Shown: positions 5,713 to 29,529 of the stretch, one piece after another
Layout of the letters: each line of letters opens with the position of its first letter
Position numbering within the stretch: position 1 is the stretch's first letter
DNA from: a virus
IMG/VR virus record: IMGVR_UViG_3300031965_000007
Span: 27,793 to 91,792 of that record
Length of the DNA stretch: 64,000 nucleotides
Direction: 5' to 3' (one strand)
Program-made: the position numbers and the translations under genes
Notes under the pieces: model-generated
Told to the model about the DNA's origin: nothing
Database searches by the model: none
Seen by the model: only the letters and a program-made list of their open reading frames with translations

Positions 5713-6459
5713 ATGGCCAGACGCAAATATACGAAAGAGCTGTATGATCGCCTCGTGCAAGGGTTCAGGGAGGCCCCAAATAATTTTTCGCACGCCTCCC
5801 GGATCGCTGGATGTGATCGCAGAGCTGCTCAACGCGCATACGAACTTGGATGGCCTGCGCGATCATGGGCCATACCCATCAAAGACTACCTCGCTGCGGA
5901 GAAGGAGAGGATCCGTGCCGAGCGCCAAAAGCAGCTTGAAGCCCAGCGCGAGAGCGAGTCTGAGATGCGCGAGAAGGCCCAGACTGATGCAATCGCTGCC
6001 CAAACGCAAGAGGCAGCCGGTTCTGCCCAGGCACGCGCCAACGCGCTAGCTCTCGCAGGCGTTATCGGGCGCATCGCAGTGGCGTGCGTCCCACTCTCTG
6101 ATCGCATCGCAAAAGCACTCCGCGAAGACATCTCGATGACGCCGCAACAGGCGCTCAAACTCTTCAGCTCCATGGCCTACGTGGTGCGGCAAGGGAACGA
6201 GACACTGAAGCTCGCTCTCGAGATCGAGCGACTGCGGGTAGGCGAGCCCACATCGATCTTCAGGCTCCAGGCAGACGAGATGACGGTAGATGACGTCGCG
6301 GATTCCCTCTCGCACCTTCACCGAACGCTCCAGCGCGCTGTGGCGCGCGGCGAATCCATGGAAACTCTTGAGCAGGCGTTGGAGCACATTCCCGGCAACG
6401 ACGAGGATGAAGACGACGTTGAGGATGACGAAGAAGAGGACGCCGAGGAGCTGCACTAA
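5713..6459 (+). CDS. probable terminase small subunit
   Basis: N-terminal HTH-like segment, coiled coil, acidic tail; stop overlaps the terL start. Confidence 0.65.
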   Translation: MARRKYTKELYDRLVQGFREAPNNFSHASRIAGCDRRAAQRAYELGWPARSWAIPIKDYLAAEKERIRAERQKQLEAQRESESEMREKAQTDAIAAQTQEAAGSAQARANALALAGVIGRIAVACVPLSDRIAKALREDISMTPQQALKLFSSMAYVVRQGNETLKLALEIERLRVGEPTSIFRLQADEMTVDDVADSLSHLHRTLQRAVARGESMETLEQALEHIPGNDEDEDDVEDDEEEDAEELH

Positions 6460-7988
6460 TGCCCGCCGTGGATCGTGCAGAACTGCAGGCGATGCGCGAA
6501 GACCTTGCGCGCTGGGTGGTTTCGAATCCGCGTGTGGCCCGGAAGGTGGCGCGAGAGTACCGCGATTTGCGTATTCGCGTTGCGCGTATCGACCCGAATG
6601 AGTTCGTCGAGTTCGTGATCAAGGACGAGAAGACTGGCGGTGCTGTATACCAGGAACCGATCCACGAAGAGTTCCAGAGACTGGCAGACGAATACGACCG
6701 CTTGATCCTCTGGGCGCATGTCGAAGGTGGCAAGACCACGCAGCTCGGAATCGGGCGCACTCTGTGGCTCCTCGGCAGAGATCCGAACATGCGCATTGGC
6801 GTCGTCTCCAGCTCCGCCAGAAACCAGGCGTCGAAGATCACCGAGACGCTGAAAAACTACATCGAGAAGTCGCCGCAGCTTCACGCCGTTTTTCCACACC
6901 TGCGCCCTGGCCGAATGTGGACCTCGAGCGCGTTCACAGTCGACCGTACCGTGTTGTCGAAAGATCCGACGGTGCAGAGCACTTCACTCGAGACGTCGTC
7001 GCTGACTGGTTCGCGTATCGACCACTTTTTGATCGACGACATCCTGACGTTCGACAACACCCGCACGCAGGAGCAGCGAGAGCGCGTTCTGCAGTGGCTC
7101 ATGTCGTCGACGATCATGGGTCGTGTTGAAGCAGCCGGGCGCGTGATCTTCCTCGGCAACGCCTTCCACCCAGAAGACGCTATGCATAAGCTGGCGCAGA
7201 ATCTTGGGTGGCACTTCGCGAAGTTCCCTGTCTACGACGATCGAGGTGAGCCCGCATGGCCTGCCCGCTGGCCGCGAGAACGTATCGAGAAGCGCCGCAG
7301 CGAGATCCATCCAGACGAGTTCGCGCGGCAGCTCCTCTGCCTGGCGCGCGATGACTCCTCGGGCAGGTTCAAACGAGAGTGGATCCACAAGTGCATGGAC
7401 CGCGGCGTGGGGAAGAAGTTCGCGAATGCGCTCAATGCGCTGCCGCCTGGCTACGCGGTCTACACTGGCGTCGATCTTGCAGTAGGCAAGAAGAAGACGT
7501 CGGCCCTCACCTGCCTCTTTACGATCGTGGTGCACCCAAACGGTGACCGAGAGGTTGTGGCACCGCCGGATACTGGCCGATGGGCAGGTAACGAGATCGT
7601 CAGCCGCATCATTGACACCCACAACCGCTTCAACTCGATCGTGTATGTCGAGAACAACGGTGTGCAGCAGTACATCGTCGACTTCACGAAGGATCAGTCC
7701 GCTGTTCCGTGCAAGCCGCTCTTCACAGGCAAGAACAAGACGCACCCAGAGTTCGGCATCGAGGGCATGGCCACAGAGATGTCGAATGGCAAGTGGATCA
7801 TTCCGTCGTACGGCGACCATCGCTCCCACCCGGAGATCATGGCATGGGCAGACGAGCTGGTTTACTACGACCCTCGAGCCCACGCAGGCGACCGTTTGAT
7901 GGCAAGCTGGATCGCGCGGCAAGGAGCGAAGGAGTGGGAGAAGCGCCCGAAGATGCGGACAGGGCGTCTCGATCTCTTGGTGCGCTGA
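6459..7988 (+). CDS. terL: terminase large subunit
   Basis: Walker A-like HVEGGKTT, Walker B FLIDD, coupling motif LGN, nuclease YTGVDLA, VENN, and C-terminal GDRLMA. Confidence 0.93.
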   Translation: MPAVDRAELQAMREDLARWVVSNPRVARKVAREYRDLRIRVARIDPNEFVEFVIKDEKTGGAVYQEPIHEEFQRLADEYDRLILWAHVEGGKTTQLGIGRTLWLLGRDPNMRIGVVSSSARNQASKITETLKNYIEKSPQLHAVFPHLRPGRMWTSSAFTVDRTVLSKDPTVQSTSLETSSLTGSRIDHFLIDDILTFDNTRTQEQRERVLQWLMSSTIMGRVEAAGRVIFLGNAFHPEDAMHKLAQNLGWHFAKFPVYDDRGEPAWPARWPRERIEKRRSEIHPDEFARQLLCLARDDSSGRFKREWIHKCMDRGVGKKFANALNALPPGYAVYTGVDLAVGKKKTSALTCLFTIVVHPNGDREVVAPPDTGRWAGNEIVSRIIDTHNRFNSIVYVENNGVQQYIVDFTKDQSAVPCKPLFTGKNKTHPEFGIEGMATEMSNGKWIIPSYGDHRSHPEIMAWADELVYYDPRAHAGDRLMASWIARQGAKEWEKRPKMRTGRLDLLVR

Positions 7989-8034
7989 TTTTCTCTGCGA
8001 CCGCGAATATCGAGGAGGCCGCACAAGACTACTT

Positions 8035-8187
8035 TTCGCAGGATCGCGATTCCGCCGCGCCCTACCAGCCAGAGAGGTTGTCCCGAAGTTTAGCGGCGTC
8101 AGGGTCTCGGGTATGGGCTATGCGATGAACCGCACCTTTCTGCCGCTTCGGTGCGTGGAGCAGACACGACTGTCGCGATCCTGCGAA
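8035..8187 (+). ncRNA. candidate structured RNA/element closed by a perfect 15-bp inverted repeat
   Basis: TTCGCAGGATCGCGA (8035-8049) / TCGCGATCCTGCGAA (8173-8187), with internal stems; intergenic. Confidence 0.5.
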
Positions 8188-8210
8188 CCTTTCGCCTAAG
8201 GAGATCACCT

Positions 8211-8426
8211 ATGCAAGTCGAGTGGACACGAGAAAGGCCTGCGTCACCTGGCCACTACTGGAAGTACGGCGTCAAGATCGAGCTTGTTCGCGTTGTGGCT
8301 GAGAAAGGGACCTTGCTCGGTCTTGACGGTGACGCCGTTGTGCCGATCAATGAGTACGCCAGTCACGTGCTGTGGGCGCCTGCGGTCCTGCCTGATCCGC
8401 CTGTTCGTAAGGAGGTGCCGCGATGA
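8211..8426 (+). CDS. small phage protein (WTxExPxxPGxYW family)
   Basis: AAGGAG RBS; WTRERPASPGHYW motif. Confidence 0.75.
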   Translation: MQVEWTRERPASPGHYWKYGVKIELVRVVAEKGTLLGLDGDAVVPINEYASHVLWAPAVLPDPPVRKEVPR

Positions 8427-8671
8427 TTTGGTCTGACGGCAAGAAGTACCGCTGTGACCAGTGCCAGAGTAGTTGGCCGCCGCGCCAGCGTTACCTCGTC
8501 TGGCCGATCCGTGTGTCGTGGCGACCTAGGAGTGGGCAGCAGAAGTTCTTCTCGGCGCATGGTGTAGAGATCGGCTCTGGCGTCATGCCAGGTCAGCGCG
8601 TTGAGGAGATCTACTTCAAGCGCGTGGTCAGGGTCGGCCCTGTCGTCGTTGTCCTTGGGGACGTAGGATGA
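8423..8671 (+). CDS. hypothetical protein
   Basis: AAGGAGG RBS; ATGA coupling. Confidence 0.65.
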   Translation: MIWSDGKKYRCDQCQSSWPPRQRYLVWPIRVSWRPRSGQQKFFSAHGVEIGSGVMPGQRVEEIYFKRVVRVGPVVVVLGDVG

Positions 8672-8820
8672 GGAAGCACTTGTGGAACGTCGCCTACGTT
8701 TACTTCGTAGGCGGTTCGATCGCTGTCTGGTACGTTGTTCAGGTTGCCATTGATCGCGAGACGGCAAAGAACGGAGCCGACTTCATCGAGAAGATCGCTC
8801 GATACGTGGGGCCGCTATGA
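8668..8820 (+). CDS. small single-TM membrane protein (50 aa)
   Basis: not in ORF track; ATGA-coupled at both ends; hydrophobic LWNVAYVYFVGGSIAVWYVVQVAI. Confidence 0.65.
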   Translation: MRKHLWNVAYVYFVGGSIAVWYVVQVAIDRETAKNGADFIEKIARYVGPL

Positions 8821-9281
8821 AAGTGGTCTGTTCTATGCCAGGCTGCCCGAACGAGAAGGCGGCAACATGCTGGATCGAGAAATGCGCGCGGTCGTTGTGC
8901 CAAGAGCACTCAATGTCGCATGGCGTCATGGTCGTTTGCCCAGAACACATCTTCCGGATCAGGCAGGCAGCGAGTGACAGTTTGCTACCACCAGAAGACG
9001 AGGAAGAAGACGATGCGAAGGTCGTGCAGAACTGGACGCCGCAGCAGAGACGTCGTCTGCACGCACGGCTCGACAACATGCTCGAGAGCGGCGACCGCAT
9101 TTTCTTGATCGCCTTAGGGCGGAACAAAGACCACACCGAGATCATGCTCGAACGCATGATTGGCAGGTTCCAGCGAACAACGCCGATCGAGATGCTAGGC
9201 GCGTTGACCCGCGCCTTGCACGACTACCAGAAAGACCTCGACGCGGATTCTGTTGTGGAGGAGATTCCGGATGAAGACTGA
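8817..9281 (+). CDS. Zn-finger (B-box-like) hypothetical protein
   Basis: CSMPGC...C...C...LCQEH...CPEH. Confidence 0.7.
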   Translation: MKVVCSMPGCPNEKAATCWIEKCARSLCQEHSMSHGVMVVCPEHIFRIRQAASDSLLPPEDEEEDDAKVVQNWTPQQRRRLHARLDNMLESGDRIFLIALGRNKDHTEIMLERMIGRFQRTTPIEMLGALTRALHDYQKDLDADSVVEEIPDED

Positions 9282-10371
9282 TCAGCAGATGGAGCCAACA
9301 CTTCTCGACGCACTTGAGACGGCGCTCGGGTTGATCTCGAACGCGTTCGAAGGTGACTGGGAGAAGGCGCCTCCCAACTGGCGCGCTGCGGCTGAGAGAT
9401 GGCGAGACGACTTCATTCGTATCTGTCGCAACGAACCGAACACGGATAGGCTCGGCATCTTGCCGCTGTTCTTCGAAGGTGGGTCTTCGCTCATCTGTGC
9501 CAGCATTGGTGCAGCACCTACCGGCATGCCAGAGAACATCGCTCTGCAGCATACCGACGACAACGGGAAGAAGACGATCACCTTCTTCAAGCCTGTCGAG
9601 ACGAAGACCCAGTATGGTGGTATTCGGCGTTTCCGCGTGGTGCGCGCAGAGCAGACCGGGCAGATACCTAGAATGGTGGCTCAAGGCGTGGTCTTCAGCG
9701 ATGGCGCTGTCTCGCTCCACTGGTGCTCGGAGGTTCGATCGACAACAGCCTACGACAGCCTAGAGAACTTCGAGAAGATCCACTTGCACGACGGTACGAA
9801 CCTGGAGTGGGAGGACAGGATCTGTTTTTCGTGCGGAGCCACCTTCTTTCGCGATCAACCAACCACCAACAACTGGTGCAGTGCGTGTGGTGCGGATGGC
9901 GGTAAGGATCCGTACTACGGAACACGCCCCGACCCAAGTCTCGGTAGGTGGTCGAAGGCGATCACTCTCAACACCGTGCTAGAACAGAAGGAGACCAGTA
10001 TGAGCAAACCGCGAGAGATCACGCAGCACCACACGAATGAAGCGAACAAGCGAATCAAGATTCTCGCCGACGAGCGTGACTCAAACAACGGCTGCACTTC
10101 TCACCGCTACGACATGCTCATCGACGACACAGGCGAGATTGTCGAGCTGCCGTTTCAGCACGGGCCGATCGCAGAGGTTGGCGTCAATGGCGTGACCAAC
10201 GAAGCCCTGCTCGCCATTCTCATCGATCGCATGGAAGGATTCCAGACCTCGCCATTCGCATGCCTGGAGAATGGCGAAGCTCTGATCGCTCTGCAAGACG
10301 CGCTCGCGTGGCTCGAGCGTCGCACCAAGGCGCGTGAAGCGCGAGGCGTAGAAGGGACGCACACGGTATGA
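9271..10371 (+). CDS. multidomain fusion with C-terminal Tad1-like (Acb2/Tad1 family) anti-defence sponge domain; internal start at 10000
   Basis: FQHGPIAEVGVNGVTNEALLAILIDRMEGFQTSPFACLEN..AL..L..AL.WL.RR...R..RGVEGT matches the Tad1 consensus as I recall it; internal AAGGAG-ATG at 10000. Confidence 0.82.
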   Translation: MKTDQQMEPTLLDALETALGLISNAFEGDWEKAPPNWRAAAERWRDDFIRICRNEPNTDRLGILPLFFEGGSSLICASIGAAPTGMPENIALQHTDDNGKKTITFFKPVETKTQYGGIRRFRVVRAEQTGQIPRMVAQGVVFSDGAVSLHWCSEVRSTTAYDSLENFEKIHLHDGTNLEWEDRICFSCGATFFRDQPTTNNWCSACGADGGKDPYYGTRPDPSLGRWSKAITLNTVLEQKETSMSKPREITQHHTNEANKRIKILADERDSNNGCTSHRYDMLIDDTGEIVELPFQHGPIAEVGVNGVTNEALLAILIDRMEGFQTSPFACLENGEALIALQDALAWLERRTKAREARGVEGTHTV

Positions 10372-10925
10372 CAGCCGTGCACCGATACTTCATCGACTTC
10401 GAGTTCGCAGAGAACGGAGAGACGATCAAGCCCATCTCCTTCGCCTGCGTGCCCGAGCACAGGTACGGTGAGGATCCCGATCCTGACTTCTACTGCGTCT
10501 TCTCAGACGGCTGGCGCCCGGAGGACTGCAACGACTTCGTGCAGAAGCACGTACTGCCGCAGCTTCGTGCAGACCACACGAACACGGTGCCGCGACAGTT
10601 TGCTGCGTCGTACCTCGAGTCTGTTCTCCTGGACGCAGCTAACCGGCATGGCGCGAAGCTCGAGTTCTGGGGCTATTACTGCGCGTACGACTGGGTTGCG
10701 CTCGCGCAGCTCTTCGGCGAGATGATCAGCCTACCGACCGGCTTTCCTCAGCACTGCATGGACCTGAAGCAGGAGATGGAGAGGTTGGGTCTCACGCGAT
10801 CTGACTTGCCTGCGCAGGACACAGGCAACCACAATGCGCTCCACGATGCCATGTGGGTACGGGAAGCGTTTCGAATGCTGCAGGATCGGTACTATCCCGA
10901 GCCGCCTGCAAAGGAGTTACGATGA
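10368..10925 (+). CDS. DEDDh 3'-5' exo(ribo)nuclease, RNase AS / Rv2179c-like
   Basis: YFIDFEF (ExoI), FWGYYCAYDWV (ExoII), HNALHDA (ExoIII). Confidence 0.85.
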   Translation: MTAVHRYFIDFEFAENGETIKPISFACVPEHRYGEDPDPDFYCVFSDGWRPEDCNDFVQKHVLPQLRADHTNTVPRQFAASYLESVLLDAANRHGAKLEFWGYYCAYDWVALAQLFGEMISLPTGFPQHCMDLKQEMERLGLTRSDLPAQDTGNHNALHDAMWVREAFRMLQDRYYPEPPAKELR

Positions 10926-11242
10926 CCAGCCATGATCGAAGCATGACACCGCAGGATCTACTCACGACGCACTTCGGGCGACCGGCAGAACCTGCAACAC
11001 CACTTCCTCTTGATCTAGGTCCAGAGTCGGTCGACAAAAGGCAAGAGGCGGTTGAGCTGACACTTCGCGCTGCGGCAGAGATGGTGGACGCGGAGCTGCA
11101 GAGCGTCATCGAGCTGATCGAGAAAACGACTGCGCACGCGAAGCGGCTCGAAGACTACCGAGTCTACCTGATCAAGACGCGCCGAGGGCTGCCGGCAATC
11201 GCTGCTGCCTACGCTGCTGCCTACGACGCGAGCAGCGACTGA
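10922..11242 (+). CDS. hypothetical coiled-coil protein
   Basis: AAGGAG RBS; ATGA overlap. Confidence 0.65.
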   Translation: MTSHDRSMTPQDLLTTHFGRPAEPATPLPLDLGPESVDKRQEAVELTLRAAAEMVDAELQSVIELIEKTTAHAKRLEDYRVYLIKTRRGLPAIAAAYAAAYDASSD

Positions 11243-11577
11243 CGAATCCCTCTTGCCAGGCGCAAACTGTTTGGGCTACCTTCTGCGTGTGAGCTTGTTG
11301 GTGGCGTTCCTGGTTGTCGCATGGCTGCTGCTTTCGGCGGAGGCGCTGAGGGTGAGCACACCTGCCACCAGTCTGTACGACCCTGGCTTGCCAGTCTCTG
11401 CGTCGCCAGTCTCTGCGTCGCCTGACCCTTGGCGACGCAGGGGCGCTGACCTGAGCGCTAGCGTACCTTCTTCCAGATACCGCTTTGCCGCAGTGCCCTT
11501 CTTTCGACCCACGCCGGACAACCGCGCGCGGGTTGCGCCCGCTTCGCAGTGCTGAAAATCCCCGTGTTGCCCCGCAG

Positions 11578-11610
11578 CCCCGCACGACCACAAATCGTGC
11601 GGGGTTTTTT
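11578..11610 (+). terminator. rho-independent terminator
   Basis: CCCCGCACGA-ccacaaa-TCGTGCGGGG then TTTTTT. Confidence 0.85.
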
Positions 11611-11630
11611 CAATGCTCGAGGTGTGAAGC

Positions 11631-11822
11631 ATGCGCCACTGGATACGGAGCTGGCACGATGGTAAGACGCCTTGCGATCTCTCGCTACGAGATGCATCGT
11701 CGCTGATCGTTGCTGGCAGGGATCAACTACGCAAGGATACGCTGGATCACATCACGTGTGACACCTGCCGAGACGCCGCAGAGCGGTGTATGTTCTCGGT
11801 GGCGCCTTCGCCCAGAGAGTAG
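11631..11822 (+). CDS. small hypothetical protein (H...C...ITCDTC)
   Basis: GAGG RBS; Zn-binding-like motif. Confidence 0.5.
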   Translation: MRHWIRSWHDGKTPCDLSLRDASSLIVAGRDQLRKDTLDHITCDTCRDAAERCMFSVAPSPRE

Positions 11823-11878
11823 GCACTGCTGACTCACTTGTGGTACAACAGCCCGTCAGCAACCGCGGAACAGGACCT

Positions 11879-13567
11879 ATGAGTAGCGCGACTCACACGA
11901 ACATGGGCGCGGTGGGGTCGGCAGTGCCAGACCTTGCCGCAGGGATCGAAGGCGGATCGGGGCCTACCATGCCGATGACTGATCGGCAGCTAGAGCTGGA
12001 TCGGCTGTGGCGGTACTACCGCTGCGCCAACTACGAAGGGAGGAAGTACGACTGGAACGGCCAGCCTACTCTGCCGAAGATCGAGCACGAGGTCGTAGCA
12101 ACAGAAGGGTTCATGCCTGCCGGCTTCTACGACGCAGGTCAGACGGGCGACTTCCCGCTCAAGTTCCGCAGGCCGACTGCGCCGTTCTACCTAGCGAAAG
12201 TGATCGTGCGTCGCTTCACCTCCCTGCTCTTCAGCCAGAAGAAGCACCCGAAGATCGCAGCCGACGATCCGCTGACCGAGGACTGGCTGACGGGCTTTGC
12301 AGATGCCACGCGCTTGTGGGTGCAGATGGCGAAGGCACGCAACTACGGCGGAGCCATGGGCTCGTCTGGCCTCGGGTTCAAGATCGTCGAGTCTGTGCCG
12401 TACGTCGAGGTGCACGATCCTCGCTGGGTGAACGTCGACTTCGCTGACCGAGAAGAATTGATCGTGCGGTCCTTCGAGAAGAAGTACCAGTTTCCGAAGG
12501 AGGTGATCAACCCTCTCAACGGCGAGCGAGAGGAGCAGTGGTTCTGGTACCGTCGCGTGATCGACGAAGAACAGGACTCGGTTTGGAACGAAGTGCCTGT
12601 CGACAGCTCCACGTCAGAGGAGCCGCAGTGGGACGCGATCCCTCATCACACCGTGGCGCACAACTTCGGGTTCTGCCCAATCGTGTGGATACAGAACACA
12701 GCCATCGACGATGCAGTAGATGGTGATCCTGACTGCCACGGCATCTACGACACCATCGAAGCGATCGACGCTTTGTGGTCACAAGCCAATCGAGGCACCG
12801 TAGCGAACTGCGACCCTACCGTTGCGATCGTCAGCGACGCCGACTTTATGGGCATTCGCAAAGGCAGCGGCAACGCCTTGCAGGTCGAGAAGGGCGGCAG
12901 CGTCAACTACCTCGAGATGACTGGTGAGGGTGGCAAGGCTGCTGTCGAGCTAGCTGAAAAGCTTGAAGAGAAAGCACTGATCGTCGCGCGGTGCGTACTC
13001 GACACGAACTTCTCGGGGCCGGCCCGCACAGTCGAAGAGGTCGACAAGAACTACTCGAACATGATCGAGCAGTGCGACGAGCTTCGCGAGCAGTACGGCG
13101 AGCGAGGCGTCAAGCGCCTTCTCGCCATGGTGTTAAAGATCGCGCGTCAGTTCGACCGAACGTGGGTCGACACCACAGGCCCGCTGCCTACACTGGTACG
13201 CGGGCTGATCAAGCTCCCGAAGAAGCGCGAGACAGACGAAGCGACCGGTCAGTCTGTGTGGCTCCAGCGCCAGGTCGGTCTCGGAGAGCAGATCGAGCTG
13301 ACTTGGCCCAACTACTTCGAGCCGAGTCAAGAGGCGATCGGCGCTGCGGTCACAGCCGCTGGCCAAGCAAAGCAGTACGCGCTCGTAGATGCCGAGACGG
13401 CAACCAAGTTCGTTGCACCATTCTTCCAGATCGAAAACATCCGTGAGGTTGTTGAGAAGGCGAAGGCTGATCAGCAGTCTATGGCTGACGCATTCGCAGA
13501 GCAAGCAACGGCAGCGGGTCAGGGCGGTGTTCTGCCGCCACCTGTCGGCAAGAAGGCGTTTGGCTGA
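11879..13567 (+). CDS. portal protein
   Basis: ~560 aa, first large ORF after terL; HNFGFCPIVWIQN motif and IELTWPNYF C-terminal region typical of SPP1-like portals. Confidence 0.85.
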   Translation: MSSATHTNMGAVGSAVPDLAAGIEGGSGPTMPMTDRQLELDRLWRYYRCANYEGRKYDWNGQPTLPKIEHEVVATEGFMPAGFYDAGQTGDFPLKFRRPTAPFYLAKVIVRRFTSLLFSQKKHPKIAADDPLTEDWLTGFADATRLWVQMAKARNYGGAMGSSGLGFKIVESVPYVEVHDPRWVNVDFADREELIVRSFEKKYQFPKEVINPLNGEREEQWFWYRRVIDEEQDSVWNEVPVDSSTSEEPQWDAIPHHTVAHNFGFCPIVWIQNTAIDDAVDGDPDCHGIYDTIEAIDALWSQANRGTVANCDPTVAIVSDADFMGIRKGSGNALQVEKGGSVNYLEMTGEGGKAAVELAEKLEEKALIVARCVLDTNFSGPARTVEEVDKNYSNMIEQCDELREQYGERGVKRLLAMVLKIARQFDRTWVDTTGPLPTLVRGLIKLPKKRETDEATGQSVWLQRQVGLGEQIELTWPNYFEPSQEAIGAAVTAAGQAKQYALVDAETATKFVAPFFQIENIREVVEKAKADQQSMADAFAEQATAAGQGGVLPPPVGKKAFG

Positions 13568-24368: not shown

Positions 24369-24620
24369 TCCGTCCTTAGGGACGGGCAACGCCCGTGCAA
24401 GCTCATACATGTTGATGGCTGCGGGCACTTTCTTGGGTCTTGGTGTCCGCAGCCTTTGACGCGTTTTGATCCTTGCATCGGGCTTGGGCAGCAGGCGCGT
24501 CGGAACGTGTAGAGCAACAGGACCAAGGCTCGCCACCTTGTAAATCCAGGCGATAAAAGCCCTCGCGTTCTACAATGGTTCGGCGCCCTGCGTGCCCTAC
24601 CCCATCCGAAGGAGATCACA
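24369..24620 (+). ncRNA. candidate structured RNA / attenuator downstream of MCP
   Basis: several stems, including GGCTGCGGGCAC (24417-24428) / GTGTCCGCAGCC (24443-24454). Confidence 0.4.
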
Positions 24621-29374: not shown

Positions 29375-29377
29375 ACC

Positions 29378-29407
29378 TTGAGCTTGCCTCGGTAACGGTG
29401 CTAGACT
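29378..29407 (+). promoter_or_regulatory. candidate sigma70-type promoter upstream of tail tube
   Basis: TTGAGC-18 bp-TAGACT with extended TG. Confidence 0.35.
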
Positions 29408-29529
29408 CGGCACCGTGACCTGGAGGCAGGCTCTGTGGTCAGCAGTCGCACCCTCTGCAAGAGGGGATAGGGCTCGCGGATTGGGGTGACACCCAGTTCG
29501 CGGGCTTTTCGCGTTGGGGAGGAAATCAC

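Follow-up and report, generated by a model that had tools for sequence, protein, structure and literature searches.

The window analysed here, a stretch of 64,000 nucleotides, comprises bases 27,793–91,792 of a 91,792-bp IMG/VR virus record whose completeness is rated 100%. In this window, the gene for the large terminase (terL) is separated from ORF 8211–8426 by a 222-nt spacer, which contains an element of 153 bp in total, non-coding throughout and bracketed by an inverted repeat (Table 1). The two arms are exact reverse complements of each other, with 123 nt between them, and are sharply bounded, neither the outer nor the inner flanking bases showing residual complementarity. The stem that they can form consists of Watson–Crick pairs only, with zero G–U pairs. 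The initial annotation had described a perfect 15-bp closing stem directly after terL and shortly before a ribosome-binding site, and both the stem and its position are confirmed: terL ends at 7988, and the AAGGAG that precedes the ATG at 8211 starts 11 nt past the end of the right arm. The short internal complementary segments that had been listed for the element are also present, each exactly where it had been placed.

Table 1. Features of the terL-proximal spacer and its flanking genes (window coordinates).
Feature	Position	Strand	Evidence
terL, large terminase, 509 aa	6459–7988	+	phrog_38 (E 5e-59), PF03237
Non-coding 46 nt from terL stop to left arm; contains GAGGAGG (8014–8020) with no start codon following	7989–8034	+	
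Left arm of the perfect 15-bp inverted repeat (TTCGCAGGATCGCGA)	8035–8049	.	sequence read
123-nt interior, constraint not evident	8050–8172	+	fold z +0.55; Rfam and coding signal negative
Possible 28-codon micro-ORF (ATG 8113, TAA 8197–8199), speculative	8113–8199	+	sequence read
Right arm of the inverted repeat (TCGCGATCCTGCGAA)	8173–8187	.	sequence read
3' end of the spacer with Shine-Dalgarno AAGGAG (8199–8204), unpaired in the MFE fold	8188–8210	+	
ORFan, 71 aa, first ORF of the accessory island	8211–8426	+	stop overlaps next start (ATGA at 8423)

The terL stop codon at 7986–7988 is the true end of the gene, because relatives of TerL align to the last residue. A C-terminal extension of TerL, or a frameshift into the open frame 7709–8128, was rejected on the same grounds, as the relatives end at the same residue. 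A coding remnant in the spacer was likewise rejected, since a gene-like codon-position GC pattern is absent in every frame. The micro-ORF that can be read through the right arm has a stop codon overlapping the Shine-Dalgarno sequence of the next gene and just a weak AGGG upstream; homologue evidence for it is nil, and it is a possible, unsupported gene. Several TerL relatives carry inserts of ~0.8–1.2 kb (P0004, 768 aa; P0018, 888 aa; L085, 2448–2735 and 3501–4751; L077, 2591–2809 and 4001–5236). P0018 carries the intein and LAGLIDADG Pfam domains PF14528, PF13403 and PF14890, and the TerL of the window has no insert.

The accessory island that begins with ORF 8211–8426 extends over 3.8 kb from terL to the portal gene (11786–13567; phrog_145) and contains small ORFs, a Tad1-like domain and an Rv2179c-like exoribonuclease (ORF 10368–10925; PF16473, phrog_2259). 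The Tad1-like gene that had been noted downstream of the element is indeed present, as residues ~296–371 of ORF 9253–10371 match PDB 8kbb with an E value of 4.5e-19. The Tad1-like domain occupies only the last ~75–110 residues of this 372-codon open frame, and is either fused to other modules or internally started. ORF 8211–8426 has no homologue among 5.8 billion proteins, in IMG/VR or in cultured phages; it is an ORFan and therefore provides no route to relatives.

Neither a sigma-70-like promoter, on either strand, nor an intrinsic terminator was found near the spacer in a scan of positions 7000–9500, in which the promoter search was confined to sigma-70-like sites. A crude 9-mer enrichment across the spacers of the genome revealed no convincing shared promoter motif. 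Because promoter and terminator consensus sequences are absent between terL and 8211, the island is most simply seen as co-transcribed with terL; because the flanking genes are, in addition, both on the plus strand, both arms of the repeat should be present on one transcript. The Shine-Dalgarno sequence at 8199–8204 is not sequestered by alternative pairing, the folds of 7989–8210 containing only a 4-bp UCUC/GAGA contact in the centroid structure.

On the plus strand, the whole element of 153 nt has a predicted folding energy of -69.1 kcal/mol (z -3.4). The interior alone (8050–8172) reaches -41.5 kcal/mol, a value matched by 135 of 200 shuffles (z +0.55); the complete spacer (7989–8210) has a z value of -0.83. 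The closing duplex, which is predicted in both the MFE and the centroid folds and is short at 15 bp, contributes the difference of about -27.6 kcal/mol and is the sole non-random part of the element. The minus strand of the element gives z -3.0, nearly equal to the plus-strand value. Because of this lack of strand asymmetry and of G–U pairs, a repeat at the DNA level fits as well as an RNA structure. The internal architecture proposed in the initial annotation finds no support in these values, as shuffled sequences fold just as well as the interior and as the whole spacer. The same applies to the proposed kissing loop: the hexamers AGCGGC and GCCGCT form an ordinary helix in the MFE fold, with no loop–loop contact, and their complementarity is at chance level, about two 6-nt complementarities being expected by chance in 123 GC-rich bases by our own estimate.

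Rfam (release 15) was searched permissively (E<=10) and gave no match overlapping the element in 2.5 kb around it (7000–9500); the 246-nt stretch 7980–8225, searched by itself, yielded no hit of any kind. ARAGORN detected neither a tRNA nor a tmRNA throughout the window. A hammerhead or another ribozyme in the spacer was rejected, as the CUGANGA core is absent from the plus strand and an Rfam match is absent, and a retron msr-msd ncRNA, in which the arms would be a1/a2 repeats beside a reverse transcriptase, was rejected because PF00078 is absent from the phage genome.

The element was also considered as a stand-alone structured ncRNA, i.e. a pRNA-like packaging RNA or a riboregulator, or as a pair of DNA-looping protein-binding sites 138 bp apart. 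The adjoining packaging genes and the 6-nt loop complementarity are in line with such a role, and the genome has other candidate structured RNAs, such as a sub-threshold type II hammerhead (21.5 bits). However, the sigma-70-like scan found no promoter of its own for such an RNA, Rfam contains no match, the interior is unstructured beyond chance, a homologue is absent from all relatives examined, and the arm motif recurs elsewhere in the genome just as chance 10–11-mers, which makes this explanation very unlikely. The likeness to phi29 pRNA, which had been drawn by analogy, is limited to the proximity of packaging genes and to a helix in which the 5' and 3' ends pair to close the structure. In the pRNA, helices are conserved, intermolecular loop–loop pairing covaries among relatives and transcription starts from a dedicated promoter; none of these features is seen in the element, and the absence of a sigma-70-like promoter together with the unstructured interior leaves the analogy unsupported.

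Other spacers of the same genome are far better candidates for structured RNA than the spacer after terL, namely those at window positions 29375–29529 (z -6.5) and 24369–24574 (z -4.0) and at genome positions 6208–6387 (z -5.3). The first of these contains a pair of long hairpins; with its U-tail, the second hairpin resembles a terminator. Three further observations concern locus L177 (G000:C1). Its minus strand carries, at 1189–1249, a full-length match to Hammerhead_II (RF02276) that, at 21.5 bits (E 0.25), stays below the gathering score of 37; it is located in a leader region outside the window, 26.5 kb before the window start. At 10517–10588 on the plus strand, a tRNA model matches with 47.1 bits and a shortened anticodon loop (1 inserted position against the 4 of the model), and the matching sequence may only mimic a tRNA instead of working as one. 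At 1445–1551, a GC-rich, near-perfect hairpin of ~100 nt is matched on both strands by unrelated miRNA-precursor models, in every case far below the gathering score of the model.

How unusual such a repeat is depends on the reference. When the whole 91.8-kb genome was shuffled 100 times under a first-order Markov model, the mean count of perfect inverted repeats (at least 15 nt, within 300 nt) was 0.05 per genome, compared with one observed, and 4% of the shuffles contained one or more. Repeats of at least 13 nt number five in the genome against 0.76 expected, and among its seven perfect repeats of at least 12 nt, the one at 8035–8187 is the sole repeat of at least 13 nt that is wholly intergenic. 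By these counts, the repeat is moderately unexpected under a composition model. Real viral DNA gives a different baseline: unrelated viral loci that had been retrieved for different purposes, 665 kb in all, contain seven repeats of at least 15 nt, 4/7 of which have loops of 50–300 nt. This corresponds to an empirical rate of about 0.5–0.55 per 92 kb of viral contigs, or ~1 per 170–220 kb, which is roughly 10 times the Markov expectation, and at ~0.55 per 92 kb the feature class is common in phage DNA. The repeat is thus only in part more than chance. As a class, such repeats exceed random expectation about tenfold; finding one of them in a phage of 92 kb is nothing out of the ordinary.

The four baseline repeats with loops of this size represent three distinct elements, two of them intergenic (L025, L052) and one coding (L035). 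The intergenic segments, L025 4255–4384 (identical to L033 3951–4080) and L052 10022–10169, are 130–148 bp long and bracketed by perfect inverted repeats of 15–19 bp. Their geometry is the same as that of the element at 8035–8187, which hints at a recurrent, unannotated feature class.

Since about 0.5 such repeats occur per 92 kb of unrelated contigs and one of the three elements is coding, many of them may be neutral. The repeat after terL could thus be functionless, a product of chance or of a replication template-switch (quasi-palindrome correction) that persists because the spacer is unconstrained. Its occurrence in 4% of the Markov shuffles and the baseline of real viral contigs agree with such an origin, as does a spacer that is otherwise ordinary in folding and in Rfam searches. 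The look-elsewhere effect is also large, because 64 kb were scanned for many kinds of oddity. On the other hand, the tenfold excess of real DNA over shuffles suggests that the class is not random, and the repeat is perfect, lies exactly within the intergenic spacer and ends just ahead of a ribosome-binding site. A neutral repeat is accordingly a serious contender, albeit an unlikely one.

Comparison with relatives was made through TerL. Cultured phages contain no TerL relative at E<=1e-20, so that the lineage is known from metagenomes alone, and a TerL-based search of GTDB genomes returned nothing. The relatives that were compared comprise 6 IMG/VR loci and 15 metagenome loci with 46–75% TerL identity. 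Blastn detected the spacer in none of them, and an inverted repeat of at least 11 nt directly 3' of terL is likewise missing from all; a covariance model built from the element, run on this genome and on 18 loci from TerL relatives, retrieves the element alone. Within this range of TerL identity, the interval between terL and the portal gene differs entirely from one relative to the next: the portal gene almost abuts terL in distant relatives (L080, L089), and unrelated small genes lie between terL and the portal gene in closer ones with 68–75% TerL identity. The interval (window 7989–11785; L075–L095) is thus a hypervariable accessory island, of which only two components recur in relatives: the C-terminal Tad1-like domain (in L083 and L095) and a portion of ORF 8817–9281 (in L085).

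Copies of the element were sought more widely. It is single-copy in the 91.8-kb phage, and blastn against 50,697 phage records gave no match. The 15-mer arm occurs 71 times in IMG/VR, every time as a single arm and never paired, as expected by chance. A pattern scan, which required exact inner arms and a gap of 105–138 nt and which diverged copies would escape, yielded 54 hits in IMG/VR and 27 in 185,579 GTDB species genomes, again at chance level. In these hits, the arms extend by 0–2 bp and the interior shows no similarity, with two exceptions that are unrelated larger palindromes.

These searches bear on a mobile origin of the element. MITEs are defined as elements of 50–500 bp with terminal inverted repeats (PMC10969869), and with its 153 bp and its perfect, sharply bounded Watson–Crick-only 15-bp arms the element agrees with this definition in size and repeats. 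Its interior is unconstrained and has no coding capacity, and it borders a region that differs in every relative. It could therefore be the relic of a MITE, or a decayed insertion sequence, at the edge of the hypervariable terL–portal island, with the arms as its terminal inverted repeats and functionless in itself. However, a target-site duplication is absent at any trimming of the arms (15, 14 or 13 nt) from the flanks ...GACTACTT / CCTTTCGCC..., and the immediate flanks, ...ACTT on the left and CCTT... on the right, contain no direct repeat. The single copy in the phage, and the yield of chance hits only from IMG/VR and GTDB, also speak against a functionless relic of this kind, which is rather improbable.

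Correia elements, which are MITEs of Neisseria with a length of ~105–155 bp and 26-bp terminal repeats, resemble the element in length, in the presence of terminal repeats and in their intergenic location within transcripts. They differ from it in that they occur in hundreds of copies and have a TA target duplication, whereas the element has one copy and no duplication and shows no sequence similarity to them.

Short perfect repeats around a small intergenic segment upstream of an operon are also the hallmark of invertons. In the fimS-, hin- and Bacteroides-type promoter switches, such repeats surround a segment of ~100–400 bp. The element would correspondingly be a 123-bp invertible switch with 15-bp inverted repeats, by which a host recombinase toggles the accessory (anti-defence) operon, and its position immediately 5' of this operon and its size class are compatible with this. 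Yet a search of the complete 91.8-kb record (E<=0.1) found neither a serine (PF00239) nor a tyrosine (PF00589) recombinase, so that, unlike in known invertons, the invertase gene would not come from the phage, and in the sigma-70-like scan both strands of the segment lack a pair of promoter-like hexamers. A phage of the lytic type would, moreover, probably have little time for phase variation. We regard an inverton as most improbable.

What could be tested argues against the specific switch, ncRNA and MITE versions, and a generic RNase III-type closing stem is the best guess. We tentatively propose that the arms form an intercistronic mRNA duplex that would serve in RNase III-type processing or in mRNA stability and possibly derives from the ends of a mobile element, and assign a probability of roughly 0.35 to this interpretation. 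A polycistronic late mRNA would run from terL through into the accessory island, and the two arms would pair in vivo as a long-range 15-bp duplex, with the unconstrained 123-nt spacer looped out. The duplex would most plausibly be a processing site for a double-strand-specific nuclease of the host RNase III type, or a barrier to exonucleases. Cleavage or stabilisation at this site could uncouple the island message (the ORFan at 8211, the small ORFs and the Tad1-like gene) from the terL message in stability and translation, with a possible benefit to the phage, while the Shine-Dalgarno sequence 11 nt downstream would stay free.

Intercistronic RNase III sites are well established in T7 and lambda. 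The T7 R-sites and the lambda sib and N-leader sites resemble the element in that a duplex separates two cistrons within a long transcript of the phage, shortly before the next ribosome-binding site, and in that conservation of the sequence is not required. They are local, irregular hairpins of ~20 bp or more with an internal loop, whereas the element is predicted to form a perfect 15-bp duplex that closes a 123-nt loop. The classical RNase III substrate measures approximately two helical turns, and 15 bp are short by comparison. As for the possible origin of an intercistronic duplex from mobile-element ends, the arms may have started out as terminal repeats bounding a small mobile element, comparable to Correia elements, whose transcribed terminal repeats are cut by RNase III (PMC10969869).

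An intercistronic duplex is favoured by a perfect and wholly non-coding repeat, by the -27.6 kcal/mol of the closing stem, by its rarity relative to Markov shuffles, by its placement within what should be a single transcript and by the free Shine-Dalgarno sequence. Against it count the lack of strand asymmetry, an interior and a spacer that fold at shuffle level, the shortness of the stem, the lack of an analogous repeat in relatives and the frequency of such repeats in unrelated viral contigs. In a stronger version, the duplex would be a dedicated gate by which the counter-defence island with its Tad1-like gene is expressed independently of the late packaging transcript, through RNase III or through a phage-borne invertible switch; this is a long shot.

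As things stand, the element is a minor feature, a lone inverted repeat without conservation, from an orphan lineage of phages. The baseline obtained here, for perfect repeats of at least 15 bp with 50–300-nt loops, is of more general use: at this rate, lone repeats of the kind deserve no high score unless conservation supports them. Should the duplex after terL nevertheless prove to be a gate, the spacers of ~130–160 bp that are bracketed by inverted repeats in unrelated contigs (L025, L052) would represent an unrecognised class of phage regulatory elements. A duplex gating the anti-defence island would then be an example of how accessory genes inserted in a late structural operon may gain expression control of their own.
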